A stretch of DNA of 63,053 nucleotides, taken from assembly GCA_977018835.1 (NCBI GenBank), contig OZ361259.1, positions 4,526,001-4,589,053 on the forward strand, in the 5' to 3' direction. This stretch comes from Minutocellus sp. GHC0000111. Taxonomy: Eukaryota. Positions 9,699 to 56,370 of the stretch are shown here, in pieces. Every line of letters begins with the position of its first letter. Position 1 is the first letter of the stretch. The translations under genes and the position numbers were made by a program. The notes beneath the pieces are model-generated. The model had not been told where the DNA came from. It saw nothing but the letters and a program-made list of their open reading frames with translations, and did no database searches.

Positions 9699-10394
9699 TT
9701 AACGCATGATGCTCTTCGGGTAGTTATCGAAGAGCATCTTCTTCGTTACGATTCCCGCCACCTCGTACGAGACTGATTCACCCGACTTAGCCAACGCCCC
9801 TTCGTCCGTTGAATCGATATCCATCTTTGAGAAAGAATCTCCGCCATCGCCGCCTTCCCCGCTTTCGTCGCGCTTGCGCTTCTTCTTCTTCATGACAACA
9901 AAGGGCTGTTTCAACTTCTCTACCTTGCCCTTTAGCTCGTGGCTTCCCAGTGTCATTATTGGCGTGCCCTGTTGTATCCGACGTACGTGCCGATTAGAGC
10001 GGAGTGGAACGAGGGGCATGGTGAGATATGTGATATTAATACGTGTGCGAATCAAAACTTCCTTGCGCCTGGCGTTGCATCGACGAAAAAGATAATTTAT
10101 TTACACAATATTTATTTATTACAACGAGATTCATTTATGATAGATAATCACGTTCCGCTCATGTGCGTGCACAGAGTATAATTATAATGAAACACTTACG
10201 TCGGAGGAAAAGCGGACGGAGCCCAATTCCATTCTGGTGCCGGCTTGGCCTTGGGTTGTGACGGTGCCGCCGGACAAAGAAGCAGCCGGTCCGACCGAAG
10301 GGGGGACAAGCTCGCCGTTCAATTCGAGAAGCGACCACTCCTGCGGAGTATCGTCGTCATCGTCGGCGGCGCCAGACCGGATGGGGATGAGCAT
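9699..10394 (-). CDS. CTF8: Chromosome transmission fidelity protein 8 (Ctf18-RFC subunit)
   Basis: Exon 1 MLIPI..EWSLLELNGEL..ELGSVRF, intron 9969-10199 (GTAAGT..CAG), exon 2 LGSHELKGKVEKLKQPFVVM..GIVTKKMLFDNYPK. Confidence 0.85.
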
Positions 10395-10979
10395 GGTAGC
10401 GCTCTGGGGCGGATGAGGCTCGAGGCGAGTGCGGTTGTGCGTTGTGCGGCGGCGGCGCGGCGGTGTTACATGTGAGGAGCGCCTCGAGGAGACTCGGTTT
10501 TGAGAAATCGAACGACAGACGGACGAAAACGATCTCAAATAAGTACAAATAAATGATTTTCCAAAAATCTCAATGTGGCGAGCCCGTGGCAATGATGCAC
10601 CCACCGGCGGGAAGATGCCTCCGCGATAGTTCCCCACCATTTGACCTCTGTGCGTCGCAAGAGAAAGGACGGTTGATGCCGTTTTAGTTGCACTCTCTGA
10701 TAGCGGCCAGCCATTGCAAGGGATATTGCATTCGCTTTTGCGCCTTGCGTATCTTTGGAGCGAATCGCAACTCCATCGCTTCGCTTGATCGAAGCGATAT
10801 TGAGAATCCAAAAGCAATCCTCGGGATACCATTTTCATTGCCTTGTGTGGTCGTTTGAGGCACCCTCCATCATTGCCCCATTGCGTCCGAACGGCGGAAC
10901 CTCTCGCTGTCAAATTCCCAACCAGCCCAGATATCAATCTGGAGAACATTGTTCTTGAACCGCAAGTAAGTGCAAATAA

Positions 10980-13900
10980 ATGTTCGGCGACGCAGATACG
11001 CACTGGCCGCCGCTGACGCCGACGACGGTCGCCGTTCATGACGACGGCAACGGCCCCAGCCATCTGACCAAAAAGCAGAAGCAGCGGGTGAAGGAGCAGC
11101 AGCGTCTCAAGCTCAAGAAGGCGCAGGAGGCGGCCGGTCCTGTGCGGAAGAGCTGGTACGACATTTCGGAGGAACCCAGCCGCGACTATGACGACGACGA
11201 CGAAGACGTCCAGTCCAGCGTATCTTCTTCCGCGTCGGCGGGAGATGGGGCCGATGGAAATGCAAACGGCACCTCCTCGGCCGCACCGGCCGGCCCTCAG
11301 GAAATGATGCGATCGGAACTGATGAAAACCTACGGATATCCGCCGGAGGAGATCGATGCGGCCATGGAAAAAATGTTCGAGCTGGGCCTCCCGTACGACG
11401 ACGCCGAGGAGGTCGATGCCTTCCTCCGGTTGGAGAAGGTGAAGGAACTTAGCGCAGCCAGCGCCGGACGCGAGGCAGTGTCGGCAGGAACCGAGTCTCA
11501 GTCTCGCGACAAGGAATCCCAAACTCCGACCCTGCCATCCACGCCGCCCGATGACAATGGCAGCCGATTGGAGGAGGCCGTCGAGGAGACCCAGGAGGAG
11601 GTTGAGGAACCGGCCATGACCGGAGTTGACGACGTGGGAGACGATGCAGCCACGGCAGGAGCTGACGACGATGAGATTTCCGACAAGGGCACGGTGCAGG
11701 CCACTGCGCCTGCTGCCGCCGTCAAGGCCAGACAAGTCAGCATCGAGCCCAAGAACGTCACGACCGCGAGCAACGCTGCTGGCGGCAACGGCAGCAGCGG
11801 GGACGTGGTCGTTGGCGTCCTTGCCAGGCTGGACATGGTGTCCAAGGCCAACAACCTCGATGATGCCATCTTCGCTCTTACCGAGTGGGTGGACAAGGTG
11901 GCGACGCCGACCGAGGTGAGTATGATGAGAGACGTGAGGTATCTTTGTCCCAATTTCTGTTGTTGCGCAATACACCATCTCACTCTCAACCTTTATGTTC
12001 CATACCCCATACATCATATTTTCTTCTAATAACTTAATATTCAGATCGTCGAATTGTGCGACACACGCAAGTGCCAGGCCTTCCTCACCATCCTCAGGAG
12101 GACCATTCAGCAGCCTAGATCTTCGTTCGACAAGAAAGTCCTCGCCCTAATCTCGGAGGTTCTCCGTGGAGTTGCTGGCGACCAGGATCGGCCCACTGGA
12201 ACAGTCACCACGGCGATTGGGAACTCCATCAAGAGTGCACGGGCCGTCGTCAAGTCCAGCAAGACCTACGGCTCCGCCATGGAGGCTTGTGCCGATACGG
12301 TGTCCAAGAGGGTGGCCTCAGAACTGCACCGGGCCGTCCTCAAGCTGCGACGGGACAACCTCGCCCTCTCGGCCGCCAACCCGGCCAGCAAGGCAGACAC
12401 CATCCGCGCGCTCGAGGCTGAGATCGAGGCCATGGCATCCTCCCTGGCCACAACCGATGGAGGACTGCTGGGCCTAATGACCAAGCGCGATTGTCACCGG
12501 TCGGCTGCGGACATGTCTTCCACCATTGTGGGCCTTTCCATCTCTCCCTCGGTGCCCTCTGAGGAGGAGGTCGACATGAGTGGTGAATCTTCCGACTCTG
12601 ATAACAGCGGAGATGATTCCGACGCCGCGGCGTCCATGGCCAACCCCAAGAATGTCATGACGTCCCTCCTTGGCAAAGACTACGATGCCAACATCTCCGC
12701 CAAGTCCGAATATGACCAGCTCCGTTCCGAACTTGACGCAGCTCTTTCGTCGATGGCCTCGAATAGAACTGAACTTATCAAGGAGAGAGATGGGTACAAA
12801 GCTGAAAGGGAGGTCGTTAATAGTCAAATTGATGATCTTCGGAAGCAGCTCGAGGAACTGGAAAAGAAGGGCAGTAAGCTCGATGCCAGTGCCAACGCCG
12901 TTGAAAGCAGATTGGAAGAGCTTGATGCTGAACTCGATGATGAAGTGAAGACCGTCAAGGTTGGCCTCTCGGTTCGCTCGGCTGCCCACCAGGTGGAAGA
13001 GGCGGCTAGAGGCGTCGCTGACGAACTAGACTCGCTCCGCAACGCACTCGATGACACCACCGTCGTGGAAGGAACAGGTCCCCATCGTCGCCTTCCTACT
13101 CGCCAGAGAAGGTCAGCACCAAAATGGGCATTTACTTTTGTCAGGATACGCAACTACTTCAGGGCCGAGGCCGATTGCATTGAGTTCATTGCAAACAGAG
13201 CCAACGGTCTCGAGAAGGGCCTCGCGGATCTCGAACGTGAGATTGATGAATGTGCCATGCTGGGAATGACAACCAATGTCATGCTCATGACGAATAGTCT
13301 CGGCGAAACTCAGCAAAACATCACCGAAGATAGGGGCGTTGTGGTCATGCTGACCTCCGAGGCAGAGAAGGTTCAGGTTGACTTTATGAAGCGCCTCGGT
13401 GAATATAAATCGGCGACGAGCTGCCCGACAATGACTCCCAGCCAGGCCTTGTCCTCGCTTCAAGTGTCGGTCCTCTCTGATATCCGAGACGCCATGAAAA
13501 GAATTGGCCTGAAGGATAAGGGTCTCTCTGATTACATCACAGGCGTCGCATCGACGCTAAATACGCCTTCCACCACCAACAGCATCAAGAGCGTCACCAA
13601 AGCCTACGATAACGATACAAACAAGGCAGAACCACCAACCAGCAAAGACAAGACAGGCAGTGAAGCACTTCCCTCGGAGGGAGACATCCTCAAGGCTGCA
13701 GATGAATTCTTTGCAGCAGCAGACAAGGATACAGTCACAGTTATTGATATCTGCATCTCCATCGAGAACAAATTTGGAGTGAATCTCGACAAGTCGACCA
13801 GAAATTCCATCAAAGACCGCTTCCTCAAATTGCTCGACGAAGCGGAGAGCGACGAACCAGCACCCGAGAAGGATCAGACTACCAACCAGGCCGCCGAGAA

Positions 13901-44514: not shown

Positions 44515-44928
44515 ACATTGTAAATTCTCGTTAATGTATATGTTAGTCCCAAAATGCGCACTGTCCCAGTTCGCGAACTGGGATCCCAGTTTGCGAACTA
44601 GGATTTATTTATCCCAGTTTGGAAACTGGGATCATAGGCACAATCTCAGTTTGCAAACTGGGATCAATCGAGAAATAATGAATATTTAGCATGGATGATA
44701 TCGCCTTTGCTTCTCCTCGCTTCATTTTTTCATAGCGAAGCAACACAGCCCAAACCTGGTCCAGACGTCCAGACGACATTAGTGCCGGAGCTGATACTCA
44801 ATAAATTGGCATTAGCTGATACTAAATACATATAGTGAATAAATAATAATATCTAGCTAGCTGCTTCTGGCAAATATAAGTCATGAACTGTACATGCATC
44901 TGTGCTATGCCGGCATCATGTTGCTACT

Positions 44929-45124
44929 TGATAAGAGGTCCTAAAGCTAAGCTAGATAGATATAGCTAGTAGAGGTAAATAGGACCTACGTAGATGAAAA
45001 ATGGGCCATCGGAGATGTCGTTGGCCCATGGATCAACGGTCAGGAGAGGGCACTGAGTCAGTGGTCTGATCACCGTACGTACCGTACGTATGTATACGTA
45101 CGTACGTATCCCACGGCATCAACA
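44929..45124 (-). repeat. 3' LTR (196 bp)
   Basis: Matches 50925-51112 apart from an 8-bp indel and a few substitutions. Confidence 0.9.
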
Positions 45125-45179
45125 CACCCTCGCAGATCAATGACTAGTGCCATTGAATCTACATGTAGAGTCCTAATTG

Positions 45180-48100
45180 GAATCAACATGTAAGTAGACT
45201 GGTCGCATGTCGACATGGTAGCGGGCGGGATGGTGCTTTGTAAAATAATCGACCAAATTTTGCGCTCCTTTCCGCCAGTGCACACCTGGAATTGTCGTCG
45301 TTGCTCTGTGCGATCTTGGACCCAGTGGAATCTCACGTCCACAGCCTTAGACCGTCTTTGCTTGACGGTTTTATTGGAGATTCTGTAGAGTTGTCAACGA
45401 CGATAGCAGTAGGGGGCTGCGGGTGACCCATTTCTTCTAGTGCTGCCCGGATTGGTGCTGCATCTTTCATGATGAGAAACAATCCTCCCAATTCGGCTTC
45501 AGCGGCTGAGGACATCACATGCTTGATGATGTTGGCATTGACGAGGATGGCTCCACTCATTGGTGGCATGGGATCACTTGAGTCAGGCTGGCGGTGCGGG
45601 TCCTTAGGGCGGGAGCTTAGGCAGAAGCACCCTCCGAGCTTGCTTCTTGATTTCGTGGGGCTGACAAGCAGGAGGCGTCGCTGTGTGCATGTGGGATCAT
45701 GTCTGACTTGACGCATCGAATGACTGCGTCGGGATGGGTTGCAAGGTAATCTAGAAGCTTCTTGGCATCTTGTCGAGTGCGCTCGGCAGCTTTGGATTGT
45801 TCCGCTGAGATGCTGTTGAGCGCCGGTAAAATTGTTGAGTCAATTGCTCGACCACATGGCACAAGGAGCTGCCCACCACCTGTTGAATTTCGTTGATGTC
45901 TTTGGCGTCGAGTGGTGGTGAGTCGTCTTCCGGTTCTGGCAGCTGGGGTCCCGGGCCATGCGTCGGACGATTCCATCGACATGGCGCATGCTCGGGCCGT
46001 GAGGGGCGGTCGTGTTGGAACTTGTGGCGCATCTCCTTGACGTAGTTAGGCACAGATAGATCCACCCATTTGGCCTCGTAGTTCCACTCGAGTTGAACAC
46101 CACAACAAAGTCGGCCTTCCCAATCGGCAGTGATCTTGCACTTGGAGTTGAGGGCCTGAATGAGATGGTCTGCATGCTCTTTCCCGACATGCTTCACTCC
46201 AAAATCGTCAATGGTTAGGCAAAAGGTAGTTGGGCGGGTTTTGTGCCTCCAAAGGCCGGCAGGACGCTTGCAAGGGAAACAGCCATGGGGTTTGAGATGC
46301 TTGACAAGTTGATCGTAGGCTAGGCGCCCTGCCTGGGGTAATCCATGCATTCCGCCATCGATTCTGACCAACACTCGACCACTCTTTACTTTGTCGTGGA
46401 GGTCGCAGGCTTCCATGACTTCGTCGGGGATGAGAGCTGCTGGCGCCCACATCCATTCTGGCTCTGGCATGGTGCTATTGAGATAGAAGTCACTGACATC
46501 AATTCCCATGAAACGAGCGTTGTCTGTAGAGATGACGCTGTTGAAAAGCAACTTTGCAGTCAACATTTCAGCGGTCGGGGTCGAGACTGTGCCAGGGTAA
46601 TGAATTTTGTCGCCTCCTGCAGTCCATCGAACTCGATTGGGATTTGGTTTATGGGAGCGACAGTCGGCGACAATGCGGAGGCATGTGGCTTTCCCCCCCC
46701 GAGGCAGTTCGGACCAGTGGACGAAAGCCATTGTGTTGGAGGGAATGCTAGCACTGTTTCCAACTCGGCCGTCCGTTAGCCGTCCAATTTCATCGATGTT
46801 TGCTTGAATGAATTGGTCCCTCATGTTCGTTTTGAGGAGGTCGCGGTGTTCAAGCATTGCACCAGCATCGGGATGGACGACGGCGTTAGCAAAGTGTTGG
46901 AGGTTTGGTAAAGGCGAGAAAGCTGCCATGTTGGCCACGTGGTGGGCACTACGACGAGATGATGGCCGTGGGGGAGGGTTCCGATGTGGAATGTGCCCTC
47001 GCTGACGGCATGATCGTCGTCGAGGTGGTTTGGCGGTCGATGGTTTGGACTTGCTTGTCGATTTTGCTGGAGCTGGTGATGTTGGAGTGGCATCGATCGT
47101 TGGAGACTTGCGTTTACGTTGCCGACGGGAGGTGGGGGCATTGGAACTTTGATTGGATGTTACGACGGTTGCATCGTCGTCATGATTATCATCATCGTCG
47201 CCGTTGGGCTCGTCTGCTGCAGCCAAAGGATTGCAGCAGTTGGAAGAAACTGACGAGCGAGGTGGCGCGTTGGATCGACGTGATCGACGGCTTCTAGTGG
47301 TGGCTGCATCACATGTGGAGGATTTTGCCACCCTCGGAGGTTGCTGGGGCTGAGGCAACGGAGCGTTGGGGTTGGAGACAAGGTGACGGCATACTTCAGT
47401 CTCGTTCATCTCTTCTACGTCGTCGTCCTCGTATTTGATTTTGTAGTGCTTATGCTTCTTGTCAAATGCAACGACTCTACCCTTGTAATTGCGATCTCCA
47501 AACACTTTGGCGACGATGGTGCCGAGGCGGAATCGTTGGGAGTCGTCATCGTTCTCCAGCACCCTCGGAGCTGCGGTTGTCTGCATCGTCTCATCAGAGG
47601 CGGAGGTGGCAGATTCTGCTGGGGTCACGCTGTTGAAAATCTCGGAGAGCTTTTCTAAAGCTTGACGATGCTCGTCTCGAAGGGGAGCAAGGGGTGCCGC
47701 TGGATGTGGATTCTGTAGAGCGTGCAGGAGTTCATGAGCTGCGACTGTTGCTGCATCGGCCGACGACGTTTTGGGTACCGGAATCATTTTGGGGAGCCAG
47801 ACGAGTGTGTTACCAGTGCGTTCCGCCCGAGTTTCCTCAATCCAAACCTTGTGACACCGGTAGTGTTCCATGGCTGGACCGACATAGTACCCATCAACGC
47901 CATGCGGGGACCAAGAGCCGCGTGCCGAGGGCATCTCGTGAAAGATGACCTTGCATCCGAGGGGGCCGAGAGGCGTGCGATTGAAATCAAAGCCGCCATT
48001 GAGTTGCTCGTACGCTGATAGTCGAGGGTTGACTCGGGATGCTCTCAGGAAATTGAGGGTCATTACCGCCTGCTCCAGCAATTTATCCCACAAGATGAGG

Positions 48101-49351
48101 GGAAAGTCGGGATCGGTACCACAGAGAATCGCAATGAAATGATTCTTAAAGGTTCGAATGGCTCGTTCGGCCGCATTTCGGCGGTGGGAGTGCGTTGGGG
48201 TCAATTGAAAATCTACATCCTTTTCTTCCATGAACTCCTTCAGCTCTCGACTCACTTCATTATCCAATCGTTGCAATTTTGGGCGAAATCCTCGCTTGGA
48301 GAGGTATTCGAAAATAGTTTGGTACGCTCAGCGCATTTCCGTTCCCGATCGGCTTTTCATTGGTTCGGCCAAGATGCTGTTGGAGTCATAGTCATAGACG
48401 ACCATTATGTACTGGTGGCCAGAAATAGACGATACCAAGAAACGGCTGATCTGAGAAGATCTGGCCCGTTATGTCATGACAATCAGCAAAGACATAGTTG
48501 GTGCGCTGTTGGTGTTGTGCCGGGTGGAGATCCTGCTCGGTTTCGTCCACCCCAGGGAGAGATTTTGGCGTAGCCATCGACCGTTTGGGCTTGGTCGACC
48601 TGATGTTCTTGCGCTGCTGGTCTAAGTGACCTTTAATCATCGGTGTCGACTGTGGCATGTGCTTACGTACAAGCTTTGATGTGAGGCCTGGCCAAGATCT
48701 ATAAAATCCCGCATCGATTGCTTTGCACCAGGCAGATAGCTGAGGATTGCCAGCGCACCAATGTAAAAAGGCTACACGTTCCGGAACCGTCTCCTGGGCA
48801 ATTGCGGCGTTGGCAGCATGTTGGATGACGTTGGGGCCGGGGAGCGGCGACATGGTGGGCGAGCAATTAAGATCTACCATCCACAATTTCGTTGAGGGGT
48901 CTCGTTTACCTTGCAAAATGACGGTATTGTCCTTGGCGATGACTACCGAATCCTTATCGAAAGTGGCAATGCATCCATCGTCACACAGCTGCCCAATCGA
49001 TAGGAGCGATGATGCCATGTTATTGAAAACATAGGCCTTGCTAGCCAATGGGGAAACCCCAGGGAGGCGAAGCGTGGCCTCGTGGGTGTTCGTCATTGTG
49101 CTATTATCCGGAAGGGTGACGCTGATAGGAATTGCTGTCTGTTGGACGTTGAAAATAGGGCCATCGTACGATAGGTGTTGGGGCTTCTGGACAAAATGTC
49201 CCGTCGTTCCAGTATCTGCTGCGAGGACGATTGGCTCTTGAGTTGGAGGTTTGCTTTTTGACGTAAGAAAAGCTAACGAAAGCGGGGAGGAGGTGGATTC
49301 AGATGCACTGTCCTCTATTTTATGCTGATTAACATCCACCGTCCCTCCCGC
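45180..49351 (-). pseudogene. pol (protease, GAG-pre-integrase, integrase, Tudor-like, RT, RNase H), disrupted
   Basis: AADTGTTGHF; WPGLT; RLDNE..HRRNAAERAIRTFKNHF; GGMHGLPQAG; TIDDFG; HSDASCL; SSAAEAELG; DYFTKHH. Several frameshifts and a stop. Confidence 0.9.
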
Positions 49352-50632
49352 TCAGTTACGACGCGAGCTACCACCGCAAGGATTGTGCTTGGTGGCATTG
49401 TCAACGTGGTTGGGCCCTTTGCAAGTGCATTCAAAGCTGGGGTGGTTGGACGAATAGCCGCACGTGTGGCAACAATGGCCTCTGGGGAGGATCGACTGCA
49501 GTTCCCGCTTCTCCTGGCGGTTGAGGTTAGGACCTTGGCCTGGGAAGTGGCCGGCGCCGTTCTGCTGGCCACCGCCGCGGCAGCCTCCACTGCCACCAGC
49601 ATGGTTGCGTCCCTCACGCAGAACGCGGTTCTCGGCCTTGAGTGAAGCTATTTCTTGGCGAAGTTTGGCAATGGTGTCATCCTTCTCGTTGCTCTTTTTG
49701 GCGAGGTTCGCCATCATGGCTTGGTTGGTCTTGAGGGCTTCGGTGGTGTCAGCCAAAAGGAGATCGGCTCGAGAAAGAAATGGATCGTCCGAGGCCGATG
49801 AGGCCAAATTCGCGCCATGATGTCCTGCCGCTTCGGTGGTGGTGTTGGCCATCTTCTTATCATGCCAATCGCGGAAGTCCGACTGCATGTTGGCCCACGT
49901 GCGTTCGGCCTCCGGTCTGTCGTCCCAGTCCTCGCATGCCTTCTTTGCCAATGAGAACCTGCGCACGGAGCGGCAGAACTTGGAGACCTTTTGCTTGTTG
50001 GTGAAGGGTTCGCCGGCCGTTTCAAACGCCTTGAAGACTTTGTTGAACATGGCGATGTGGGTGTCGATGGGTCCCCCGTCGTGCTGCTTCTCGAGCTGCT
50101 TCTCTAATTCCTCCTTCTGAGTCTCGTTGAATTTCAAGTAGCGATCGGCAACGCTGTCGATGATTTGGCGGATGGTGACTGGCTGGAAACCGAGCATGTC
50201 ATCTTCGAGATGATTGATGTAGACGGCGTCGATCGAGTCGAGGAGGAGATTCTTGAGCGCCGTGTTGACTTGCTCGTACAAGTTGCAGTGGCCCTTTTCG
50301 ATGCAATGTCCCCGGATTGCACGATCGCGTTGGTCTAGATTGGCCACGGCGGGAATGGTGGGGCTGGGGCCAGGATTTGCCGGAGGCACATGTGGTCGGC
50401 CGTTACTTTTGGTGGTGTGTTCGGCATCGCTGACGACGAGGCCCAAATGGCCGAGGTTGTGGTCATTGCACCCTGCTGGAACGCTGGCCGCCGCTTGTTG
50501 AAGTTCCTTGAGCGCTTTGGCAACACGCTCGCGTTGGGGAGGTTGTCCTGGGTCATTCATGCGTGTGATTAACTTGGTGGGGAGAATCGGCGCTGCGCCG
50601 AGAGGTTGGCAAAAAACTGCGTCGGGATCCAT
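49352..50632 (-). CDS. Retrotransposon gag
   Basis: GHLGLVV, RTWANMQSDF and zinc knuckle CHTCGYSSNHPSFEC; ends in a TGA that is in frame with pol. Confidence 0.85.
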   Translation of the reverse strand: MDPDAVFCQPLGAAPILPTKLITRMNDPGQPPQRERVAKALKELQQAAASVPAGCNDHNLGHLGLVVSDAEHTTKSNGRPHVPPANPGPSPTIPAVANLDQRDRAIRGHCIEKGHCNLYEQVNTALKNLLLDSIDAVYINHLEDDMLGFQPVTIRQIIDSVADRYLKFNETQKEELEKQLEKQHDGGPIDTHIAMFNKVFKAFETAGEPFTNKQKVSKFCRSVRRFSLAKKACEDWDDRPEAERTWANMQSDFRDWHDKKMANTTTEAAGHHGANLASSASDDPFLSRADLLLADTTEALKTNQAMMANLAKKSNEKDDTIAKLRQEIASLKAENRVLREGRNHAGGSGGCRGGGQQNGAGHFPGQGPNLNRQEKRELQSILPRGHCCHTCGYSSNHPSFECTCKGPNHVDNATKHNPCGGSSRRN

Positions 50633-50924
50633 GCTGGTGTTTCAGTCAGAGCGAAGACACGCAGCACGGCGGCGTTGCTGCGAGACGTGTGATCGACAGA
50701 AGGTTCGATCCAGAGAAGTGTGATCGATTGGATGGGTCGATCTGGTCAGGACTTTCGGAAAAGGGATTGGATCGTCGTTCCAATGTTGTCGAAAGAAACG
50801 GTCGTTTTGGCCGATTGAAGATGTGTCGGTTTTTCTTGCGTGACGAGTGAGAACCCAAGACAAACCGGTGAGGTGCGAACCGAAATGGGGCGAGCACGGG
50901 TGGAAAAGATGTATCACGTAGGTC

Positions 50925-51112
50925 TGCTAAAAGGTCCTAAAGCTAAGCTAGATAGATATAGCTAGTAGAGGACCTACGTAGATGAAAAATGGGCCATCGG
51001 AGATGTCGTTGGCCCATGGATCAACGGTCAGGAGAGGGCACTGAGTCAGTGGTCTGATCACCGTACGTACCGTACGTACGTATACGTACGTACGTATCCC
51101 ACGGTATCAACA
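50925..51112 (-). repeat. 5' LTR (188 bp)
   Basis: Begins TGTTGAT and ends CA on the minus strand; contains (TACG)n and TAGC-rich tracts. Confidence 0.9.
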
Positions 51113-51522
51113 CTACTGTACCAGTACATGTAGCTTGCAAATTCAAGATATGATGCACAGTGCAACTTGTATTGTAGATAGATCTACCAGTACATAATCA
51201 TTGTGCATGAGCCAACACCGGCAGTTACCATTCTGACACTTGCCGAGAATGCCAGTTTCCAAACTGGTATTCATTTTTGTTCCAGTTCGCGAACTCGTCT
51301 GGTTCCCAAATTCGGATTGGCGTGTTCATCTCAGTTTCCATTCTGGTAGTATCAGTGCGCAAACTGAGATCCTAGTTTGGGAACTGGGGCCCAGTGCGCA
51401 AACTGGGATAAATGAATCTCAGTTCGCAAACTGGGATCCCAGTTCGCGAACTGGGACAGTGCGCATTTTGGGACTAACATATATTTATTTTTACAGGCTC
51501 TTGAGTTTGTCGAATATCCTGA

Positions 51523-54118: not shown

Positions 54119-55265
54119 TTATATTGCCTCAAGCTCAGGAAGGCCCTGGAACGGAAGCTCCTCGCGCTGCTTGTCCTCGCCAATAATCTTGAACTCAGCG
54201 GTCTTGGAACCGAATTCAACAATCATCATCTGGAATTCCTCGGCTGATACAACCTCCTGGTCAACAAGGGTCTTGGCCAGATGGTCGAGGAGGTTTCGGT
54301 TCTCTTCAATGATCTGCTTGGCCTTGAGGTATGAGTTGTTCACAAGACGCTCGACCTCCATGTCGACGGTGCCCATAATCTTGCTTCCCCACCTGGTCTG
54401 CTGCTGGCCCATGGATCGGCCCATGAAGGGTCCCCCGGACTGAGGAGTCTCAAGAGCTATGAGACCGACCTCAGGGCTCATGCCCCACTCCTTGACCATG
54501 CGCTTGGCGATGTTGGCAACCTGCTGAAAATCGTTGGAGGCACCGGTGGTGACTCCGTCCTCGCCGTAGATGATCTCCTCGGCGAGACGTCCGCCGAGGG
54601 CGACGGCAAGCTGAGACTCGAGGTACTGACGGCTGTACATGCCAGACTCGAGACGGGCCTCCTGGGGGGCGAAGAAGGTAAGTCCACCGGCACCGTTGGA
54701 GCGGGGGATGATGGAAATCTTCTGGACCTGGTCGTAGTCGGGGATGAGAGCACCGACGACGGCGTGGCCGGCCTCGTGGTAGGCAACGAGCTCGTTCTGA
54801 CGGGCGGCGAGGGTGGCGGTACCGCCCTTCTTCTCCAGGCCGACCATGATGCGGTCGACGGCGCCGTCGATCTGCTCCCAGCCGATGGTGGACTTGCCGT
54901 TGCGGGCGGCAGAGATGGCGGCCTCGTTCATGAGGTTCTCGAGCTGTGCGCCGGAAAAGCCGGGAGTACGGCGGGCGATGGCCTCAAGGTCGACATCGGG
55001 CTCGAGGGGCTTGCCACGGGCGTGGACGCCAAGGATGCGCTCACGGCCCTTGAAGTCGGGAAGGTCGACGGTGATCTTGCGATCGAAACGGCCGGGACGA
55101 AGGAGGGCCTGATCAAGGACATCGACACGGTTGGTGGCGGCAATGGTAATGATGCCGGGGTTTCCATCGAAACCGTCCATCTCAACAAGGATCTGGTTGA
55201 TGGTCTGCTCACGCTCGTCGTTGCCACCGGCGAAACCGGCACCACGCTGACGACCGACGGCGTCG

Positions 55266-55299
<34 letters not shown>

Positions 55300-56370
55300 T
55301 CTTGGCCTGGCCGAAGATGTCACGGACACGGGAGGCACCGACACCAACGAACATCTCGACGAACTCGGAACCCGAGATGAAGATGAAGGGAACGCCGGCC
55401 TCACCAGCGACGGCCTTGGCCAGGAGGGTCTTACCGGTACCGGGAGGTCCGTCCAGGATGACACCGCGGGGGATGCGGCATCCGTTGGCACTGTAAACCT
55501 CGGGCTGCTTGAGGAAATCGACAACCTCGGCAAGCTCGAGCTTGGCACCGTCGCAACCGGCGACTTCCTCGAAGGTGACGCCGGTGTCGGGGATCATCTG
55601 GATCTGGGCCTTGGACTTGCCAAATCCCATGGGGTTGCCGGGTCCACCGCCGGGCATGCCGGTGTTGCCGCCGCCGGAGTTGCGCGAGAGGAAGAAGAGG
55701 CCGGCGAAGAGGGCGGCGGGAAGGATGAGGGACTGGGCCAGCTCGCCGAGTCCTCCGGCGTTCTCGGTGGAGGGGAGGACGGTGACGTCAACCTGTTGTA
55801 TTGTTATTTATTGAAGGCAAATGCATAGATGAGATTTGAGTGAGTCAGAGCATCAGATAATTGCGCGGAATGCAAAGGAAGAAGACATGATGTCTGCACC
55901 AAAGCATACGATAAGATAATGCATTCCAAAATGCGAAAAAGGAACACAACAAAGGCACCCACCTTGTGGCTGGTAAGCTCGGTGAGGAGATCGGGATCGT
56001 TGGGGAGGGCCTCAATCTTGAGCCGAGTGCCGTCGGTATCGACGCCAAGGAGCTGGGTACCATCCGCCGAGAAGGTGACCTTCTCGATGCGGTCGGCCTT
56101 GACGAGGCGGAGGAAATCCGAATACCGGACGGCACCGGGAGCACCGCCGCGGCTCTGGATGACGGGGAGGTTGTCAGCAGAGTTGGAGACGACGGTGGTC
56201 TCGAGGGTGGCGGCGGGGGGCATGTCCATGTCCATGGCCATGAAGCGACCGCTGCCGCGCGCGCGGCTATTGGCACCGGCGTTCAGACGGGCGGCGGGCT
56301 GGAAGGCGACGGCATCGCCGAAGAGGTGGGTGGCGGCCAGAACGAGGACGGTGGAGGTGGAGAACTTCAT
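54119..56370 (-). CDS. ftsH: Nuclear-encoded plastid FtsH metalloprotease
   Basis: Signal + AVAFQP presequence; [30 protein letters not shown]; intron 55793-55962; strong C-ending codon bias. Confidence 0.95.

Follow-up and report, generated by a model that had tools for sequence, protein, structure and literature searches.

Both-strand A-to-G hypermutation at TpA in the coding body of a diatom copia retrotransposon family

The element and its insertion site

The 63,053-nt stretch analyzed in this study (the window; Minutocellus sp. GHC0000111, contig OZ361259.1, positions 4,526,001 to 4,589,053) contains a copia element of the CoDi type on the minus strand which, by sequence comparison, was inserted within a miniature inverted-repeat transposable element (MITE). 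The gag and pol genes of this element have lost many of their tyrosine codons (TAY, where Y is a pyrimidine and R a purine) to TGY (Cys) or CAY (His), and the long terminal repeats (LTRs) of the same copy are nearly unaltered. The features of the locus are as follows.

44537..44928, no strand: left part of the MITE, including the terminal inverted repeat (TIR) at 44537-44630; the arms are 94 nt, inverted and 94% complementary; spared
44924..44928, no strand: left copy of the target-site duplication, CTACT, called from the sequence; joint with five shared letters
44929..45124, minus: 3' LTR, TG...CA, with many intact RTAY sites; the only TpA change, at 45117, lies 8 bases outside the body
45125..49351, minus: pol (protease, integrase, Tudor-like insert, reverse transcriptase (RT), RNase H), hypermutated; six tblastn segments with 79-85% identity to the intact relative P0002
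47860..48640, minus: integrase core, with locally low hypermutation by Tyr and TAY site counts
49352..50632, minus: gag open reading frame (ORF) with a TGA end, hypermutated; four of the five Tyr of relative L001 are His or Cys here, with TpA differences at 49400-50561
50633..50924, minus: 5' untranslated leader, with a TAY change at 50785
50925..51112, minus: 5' LTR, no TpA change seen
51113..51483, no strand: right target-site duplication (51113-51117) and right part of the MITE, with its TIR at 51390-51483; no RTAY change

The pol gene is broken by indels near 48443, 45855, 45655, 45382 and 45281 and by a stop at 48328-48330. The uninterrupted MITE, recognizable by the joint 44923-51113, was found in contigs from all four sequencing runs examined, and the summed depth of the MITE is approximately twice that of the copia body in run X1. 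The element shares with the CoDi LTR retrotransposons, as described in PMC2806351, its TG...CA LTRs, target-site duplication, separate gag ORF upstream of pol, protease-integrase-RT-RNase H order and relatives in Phaeodactylum and Fragilaria, and its assignment as Ty1/copia of the CoDi type follows from these features and from named diatom relatives rather than from an RT tree. Its relatives include Phaeodactylum and Fragilaria proteins, and the closest relatives carry RVT_2 (PF07727); the mutated RT of the window has no Pfam match.

Tyrosine loss in this copy and across the family

The preliminary description of this DNA had read Cys and His residues at consensus Tyr positions as the trace of both-strand TpA hypermutation. 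All of the codons on which that reading was built are present in the sequence, and the corresponding pol positions in the intact relatives P0001-P0003 (63-78% identical in RT) encode Tyr instead of the same Cys or His. The gag motif AGHHGAN likewise has Tyr in relative L001. One residue must be withdrawn from the list of mutations, as the His of PHGC at 46285-46287 is a family trait, with His in all 26 covering sequences. Against the intact relatives P0001-P0003/P0139, the 51 mapped Tyr columns of the window read Y 23, C 14, H 13 and F 1, and conserved RT and RNase H tyrosines are among those lost.

The nucleotide differences point to the same process. Comparison of the window with family contigs from the four runs gave 149 differences, of which 40 were displayed; in 27 of these 40 the family has A/T where the window has G/C, and 22 of the 27 fall at TpA (12 T>C and 10 A>G), with T-A-pyrimidine on the A-bearing strand in 20 of the 22. 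Within pol, A>G or T>C at TpA explains 34 of the 56 amino-acid differences from the family. Overall, approximately 30% of the TAY sites of this copy are altered (31 of 103 non-synonymous strand-sites). The two LTRs do differ as had been noted, with C at 45117 and T at 51105. TpA is reduced rather than erased, as the preliminary description had put it; the per-kilobase observed/expected ratio of 0.36-0.57 in the element lies inside the range of 0.31-0.96 for the rest of the window. Bulk TpA observed/expected was therefore rejected as a marker of the element, since its values do not single the element out. The further expectation that neighboring host genes keep their Tyr was borne out for one gene, AFG1, which has Tyr at 7 of the 7 columns where its orthologues do and which alone constitutes the control; host ORFs of the window also retain RTAY sites.

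The family pattern was examined with 36 proteins plus the window (37 sequences), the proteins being 90-96% identical to the window and located almost entirely on long contigs; of the main cluster's 113 members, 15 are included. The proteins P0147 and P0151 were considered as a second family and found to belong to this one. Across the 49 Tyr columns of the 37 sequences, the counts are Y 406, C 165, H 159, F 12 and N 2, totals that include a fixed His (pol column 1018, 26 H) and a fixed Phe (column 284, 11 F), neither of which is mutational. Cys and His occur together at 29 of the 49 columns, and no Arg was found. Since TGY and CAY are each a single step from TAY, this coexistence indicates repeated independent changes on both strands. 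In the first 15 proteins, Tyr was altered in 119 of 355 observations (Cys 72, His 45) vs. 0-9% for other residues; the next commonest replacements (V>A, T>A, I>V, S>G, K>E and I>T) are likewise A>G or T>C, and transversions are rare. Because the column table behind these 15-protein counts, and behind the strand, clustering and load figures below, left out columns without a clear majority and mis-polarized the hottest Tyr columns, its rates are low; the 37-sequence counts and the context rates below use outgroup polarity.

The changes behave as separate events. TpA changes occur at similar rates on the sense (109/782) and antisense (73/689) strands, and no excess of shared changes between copies was detected (lowest pairwise-sharing P = 0.02 among 80 pairs). 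Adjacent changes were on the same strand in 95 of 182 cases vs. 91 expected, so that the strands are interleaved, and no spatial clustering was found along the element. The load per copy ranges from 5 to 49% of TAY sites and is overdispersed (P = 6e-11). The A>G hypermutation of this diatom retrotransposon family is thus real and partly advanced.

Context rates were computed only from columns with the ancestral residue intact in the window, which allows the context to be taken directly from DNA, with copy-by-site pairs as observations. The rates were 18.5% at RTAY (32/173), 7.4% at YTAY (29/394), 1.2% at RTAR (6/510) and 0.5% at YTAR (1/197). Outside TpA the counts were 42/3676 at CpA, 16/3099 at ApA and 4/4110 (0.1%) at GpA, the CpA excess possibly reflecting TpA sites already altered in the window; C>T at CpG (21/3248) and G>A overall (44/9513) remained at background level. 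Counted by distinct sites, 14 of 20 RTAY sites were changed vs. 1 of 17 YTAR sites. The base preceding the codon affects both products: Tyr>His occurred in 103/302 observations after a purine vs. 9/346 after a pyrimidine (P = 1e-28), and Tyr>Cys was doubled (83/302 vs. 53/346). A preceding purine therefore raises changes on either strand, which identifies the palindrome RTAY as the preferred site. The enrichment of A>G and T>C at TpA thus holds, most strongly at RTAY, and the proposed target needs refinement: the spectrum is of the TpA type, but TpA as such is not the target, as the ranking is RTAY > YTAY >> TAR. Taken together, the family counts and context rates support an A>G process that acts at TpA on both strands, is private to each copy and is confined to the element, a combination that sense-RNA editing, APOBEC, repeat-induced point mutation (RIP) and 5-methylcytosine decay cannot produce.

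The pattern extends unevenly to other elements. In a distant cluster (P0046 and P0492-P0495), Y>C was counted 18 times and Y>H 8 times in 131 observations, and at least two Cys or His at core Tyr columns were present in 14 of the 197 scored proteins. Such a pattern was absent from three Phaeodactylum proteins, from the Fragilaria protein and from a further 16 CoDi proteins on long contigs, and in retaining their tyrosines the examined Phaeodactylum and Fragilaria relatives differ from the present element; diatom elements therefore do not all undergo the process. In a set of 80 metagenome loci, one of the 78 scored had at least two Cys or His at core Tyr columns, a weakly informative count given that these are collapsed short-read contigs picked by conserved peptides. 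Further CoDi proteins with Cys or His at core Tyr are P0295, P0331 and P0312; one of P0046, P0492-P0495, P0295, P0331 and P0312 was named as Ditylum brightwellii (2/10). The related elements L005 and L016 exhibit strong CpG depletion (observed/expected 0.22) and mostly keep their Tyr, which indicates that CpG decay and TAY loss are separable.

Short-read variants and the limits of the altered region

Short-read evidence was concentrated in the integrase stretch, 47860-48640, where 12 variant places were found, all A/G or T/C and one of them a window-private G>A. Of the other 11, nine are at TpA and eight at TAY. The Illumina RNA runs X6 and X7, from two studies, contain nine of these 11 (eight at TpA and seven at TAY), in both directions; as TAY makes up 29 of the 381 A/T bases of the stretch, the Illumina variants are enriched there (P = 5e-7). 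In five variants the sense strand has U>C, a change that A-to-I transcript editing cannot yield. Checking the changes in short reads, as the preliminary description had suggested, therefore recovered the same variant class in Illumina contigs of two studies and left this copy's own alleles unconfirmed there. The family does undergo this process; the precise load read from the assembly is unconfirmed.

These data bear directly on whether modified bases in the element bodies were misread during long-read basecalling or consensus building. Such an artefact would fit four points: no sequencing platform is recorded for the assembly or for runs X1, X2 and X5, many frameshifts are present in the family proteins, the depth test was negative, and two 2-base insertions in the window fall at TAY sites. 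However, Illumina contigs of two studies carry TAY variants both ways at the enrichment given above, the separate cluster P0046 and P0492-P0495, from two collections (ENA and Logan), has the same Y>C and Y>H changes, and the 16 other CoDi proteins on long contigs lack Cys and His at core Tyr. An artefact is accordingly highly improbable. The two insertions, near 45281 and 45855, can be read as TA->TGCA and TA->CATG, and the Illumina contigs likewise contain unplaced 2-base insertions. As for a staggered double lesion as their origin, the 45855 insertion is present in none of the 17 family proteins crossing that point, and further short duplications in the window lie away from TA.

Within this copy, the alteration is confined to the element body. 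RTAY sites were changed in 1 of 22 cases in the two LTRs vs. 16 of 23 in the pol Tyr columns (P = 7e-6), and TAY strand-sites in 1 of 56 cases in the LTRs vs. 31 of 103 in the body. A family contig covering 44932-45076 of the 3' LTR differs from the window by one non-TpA change, which excludes earlier changes shared by the LTRs over that interval, though not over 45077-45124. In the covered parts of the MITE, 0 of 13 RTAY and 0 of 42 TAY strand-sites were altered; between a MITE contig spanning 44701-44923 and the window the only difference is one non-TpA position, and the lone TpA change of the MITE, at 51327, is in the cold orientation. The MITE has been resident at least as long as the copia insertion. 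Inside pol, the integrase core is also low, with 0 of 22 TAY sites changed in the window (pol aa 301-500), and in the five copies spanning both regions 11 of 25 RTAY Tyr columns were changed in the integrase core vs. 26 of 30 in RT.

These contrasts argue against the earlier label of a repeat-targeted, reverse-RIP process, as both linked LTRs and the surrounding MITE, whose read depth exceeds that of the copia body, are spared and the changes are neither strand-coordinated nor clustered. For a duplication trigger as in RIP, the LTRs (<200 bases) and the MITE (<400 bases, split) are unhit, but their lengths are near RIP's limit. The sparing of the LTRs and the MITE may also represent delay rather than immunity, both being short.

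Candidate mechanism, rival explanations and related systems

The mechanism favored here, to which we give about an even chance, is that, once the element has inserted, adenine in its silenced body is deaminated by a host enzyme. The element would insert first and its body would be silenced in the chromosome; a candidate host enzyme would then deaminate adenine of the chromosomal DNA in that body, mainly at RTAY, and the resulting inosine would be copied as G, giving A>G on either strand. The changes would pile up as separate single events in episodes, which would fit the uneven load between copies. Adenine deamination with a 5' T would be the simplest chemistry for both-strand A>G, and the preference of engineered TadA for a 5' pyrimidine (reported in 10.1101/2024.11.19.623682) counts in its favor. 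The chromosomal timing is suggested by the single LTR-to-LTR difference, by intact LTRs that share the RNA/cDNA stage of the body, by the lack of strand-coordinated runs and by analogy with Bigelowiella natans, discussed below. From the spared repeats, targeting would probably depend on the state of the internal region, in chromatin or transcript, and not on repeat pairing; diatom CoDi elements are described in PMC9998398 as CG-methylated with H3K9/H3K27 repressive marks. A function in defence appears plausible.

Several observations weigh against this mechanism or narrow what it explains. A>G at TAY is indistinguishable from T>C at RTA on the opposite strand, and the substrates of eukaryotic ADAT2/3 are mostly U-A-purine, a mismatch to TAY. 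The sparing of the LTRs and the MITE was seen in this one copy. Load was uncorrelated with other changes per copy (16 copies, rho -0.14, P = 0.6) and so gives no clock evidence for accumulation after insertion. At many derived sites the contigs of runs X1 and X2 show only the family base, so that private alleles of this copy are unconfirmed, although such contigs drop rare variants; run X1 contributes just two A>G or T>C family variants to the integrase stretch, and contig k-mer depth did not correlate with predicted TAY load (Spearman -0.2, n=9 in X1; 0.6, n=5 in X2).

Three other origins for the changes were weighed. A writer enzyme might mark RTAY in duplex DNA, by adenine methylation or by thymine oxidation to 5-hydroxymethyl- or formyl-uracil, with the marked base then mispairing or being converted in a two-step, RIP-like manner. 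Recognition of a duplex predicts both a self-complementary best context and the doubled sense-strand rate with a purine at -2 (83/302 vs. 53/346), and the data cannot separate A from the opposite T. On the other side, Tyr columns contain no double-change CG product and the papers listed by a literature search include no diatom example, leaving this scheme unlikely; GTAC adenine methylases occur in chloroviruses. Pol eta-like synthesis, which gives both-strand A>G with a TA preference by placing G opposite template T, could act through error-prone gap filling while methylated or silenced element DNA is repaired. The background rate at ApA (16/3099 vs. 44/9513 for G>A), the unclustered changes on uncoordinated strands and the rarity of transversions make gap filling improbable, even though the CG methylation and repressive marks of diatom elements (PMC9998398) would supply its substrate.

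The changes could instead precede integration, arising on the RNA genome and minus-strand cDNA or through the element's own reverse transcriptase. The wide differences in load among copies, independent of other divergence, and the sparing of the MITE, which has no RNA stage, would suit such an origin, and the integrase dip recalls the gradients around a central polypurine tract. Yet the LTRs share the intermediate and keep 21 of their 22 RTAY sites, the sole LTR change differs between the two LTRs, strand-specific runs are lacking, and the B. natans changes arise in chromosomal DNA according to 10.64898/2026.01.13.699255; a pre-integration origin is thus distinctly improbable.

The preliminary description knew of no named system of this kind. 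The same spectrum is already reported for B. natans in a 2026 preprint, the one printed case located, by Mettrop et al. (bioRxiv 10.64898/2026.01.13.699255), who describe TpA hypermutation of integrated nucleocytoplasmic large DNA virus and virophage DNA. According to that text, the spectrum was seen de novo in mitotic lines, acts on single-copy silent DNA and is active in some lines only, and the authors propose an A-deaminase (ADAT), the enzyme being unproven. The two cases are alike in that A>G and T>C occur only at TpA, on both strands, in foreign or mobile DNA and unevenly across lineages; RT and DDE domains are also described as enriched among the TpA-poor genes of B. natans. They differ in that the B. 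natans host is rhizarian, its targets are single-copy viral inserts and its changes were measured de novo, whereas here the host is a diatom, the target is a multicopy LTR retrotransposon and the changes are deduced from comparing copies. The main text of Mettrop et al. as consulted gives no context beyond TpA (the words 'trinucleotide', 'LTR' and 'diatom' do not occur in it) and reports no spared LTRs or MITEs. The open PubMed Central and bioRxiv literature yielded no report of such hypermutation in diatoms.

RIP of Neurospora crassa likewise inactivates transposon copies by transition hypermutation and prefers certain dinucleotides, but it is described as C>T, clustered, approximately 90% on one strand per cluster and directed at duplicated DNA (PMC7296669). 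In the diatom family the changes are A>G, unclustered and on interleaved strands, two kinds of repeat are spared and C>T is at background. The comparison with APOBEC3 and ADAR extends to context-dependent, deamination-type changes fixed in retroelement copies; on the sense strand each of these enzymes produces a single type of change, and it does so before integration, whereas A>G and T>C occur here at similar rates. The diatom process is therefore of the B. natans kind and is not the mirror image of RIP.

The new elements at this locus are the RTAY ranking from many independent copies, the short-read support and the contrast of body with LTRs and MITE. A diatom family caught part-way, with 5-49% of TAY sites altered per copy, extends the process to another lineage of the SAR group (stramenopiles, alveolates and rhizarians) and to retrotransposons. 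The four-base RTAY fingerprint provides a yardstick for assaying candidate enzymes, and the altered body beside spared LTRs and MITE provides a sharp internal control for locating the targeting signal. More speculatively, and with considerable doubt, a diatom host system may edit adenine in double-stranded chromosomal DNA at the palindrome RTAY, steered to silenced retrotransposon coding bodies and leaving LTR promoters and MITEs alone; with a common origin with the Bigelowiella system, it would constitute a SAR-wide genome defence, hitherto undescribed, that changes A to G and is built around a natural DNA adenine deaminase. A natural enzyme converting genomic A to G would, if true, matter for mutation biology, base editing and the dating and annotation of diatom elements.

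Additional observations concern the element and its surroundings. The gag TGA lies at 49352-49354, and pol goes on in the same frame. A Tudor-like domain (PF21743) is encoded at 47390-47530 in pol, between integrase and RT, and is also present in the relatives P0001-P0003; it could be a chromatin-targeting module. The MITE (44537-51483) is very high in copy number, and its arms hold internal 20-base repeats of the CCCAGTTYGCRAACTGGG type. No tRNA genes were found in the window. The nine bases directly inside the 5' LTR (50916-50924), at the primer-binding position, are complementary to 50971-50979 within the LTR and are paired in the predicted RNA fold; a comparable pairing of the primer-binding position is found in self-priming elements such as Tf1. 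The best named relatives of the neighboring AFG1 gene are in Thalassiosira and Cyclotella (approximately 60%), and two long ORFs of the window, 10182-12146 and 54335-55828, have no Pfam match and a low share of Tyr.

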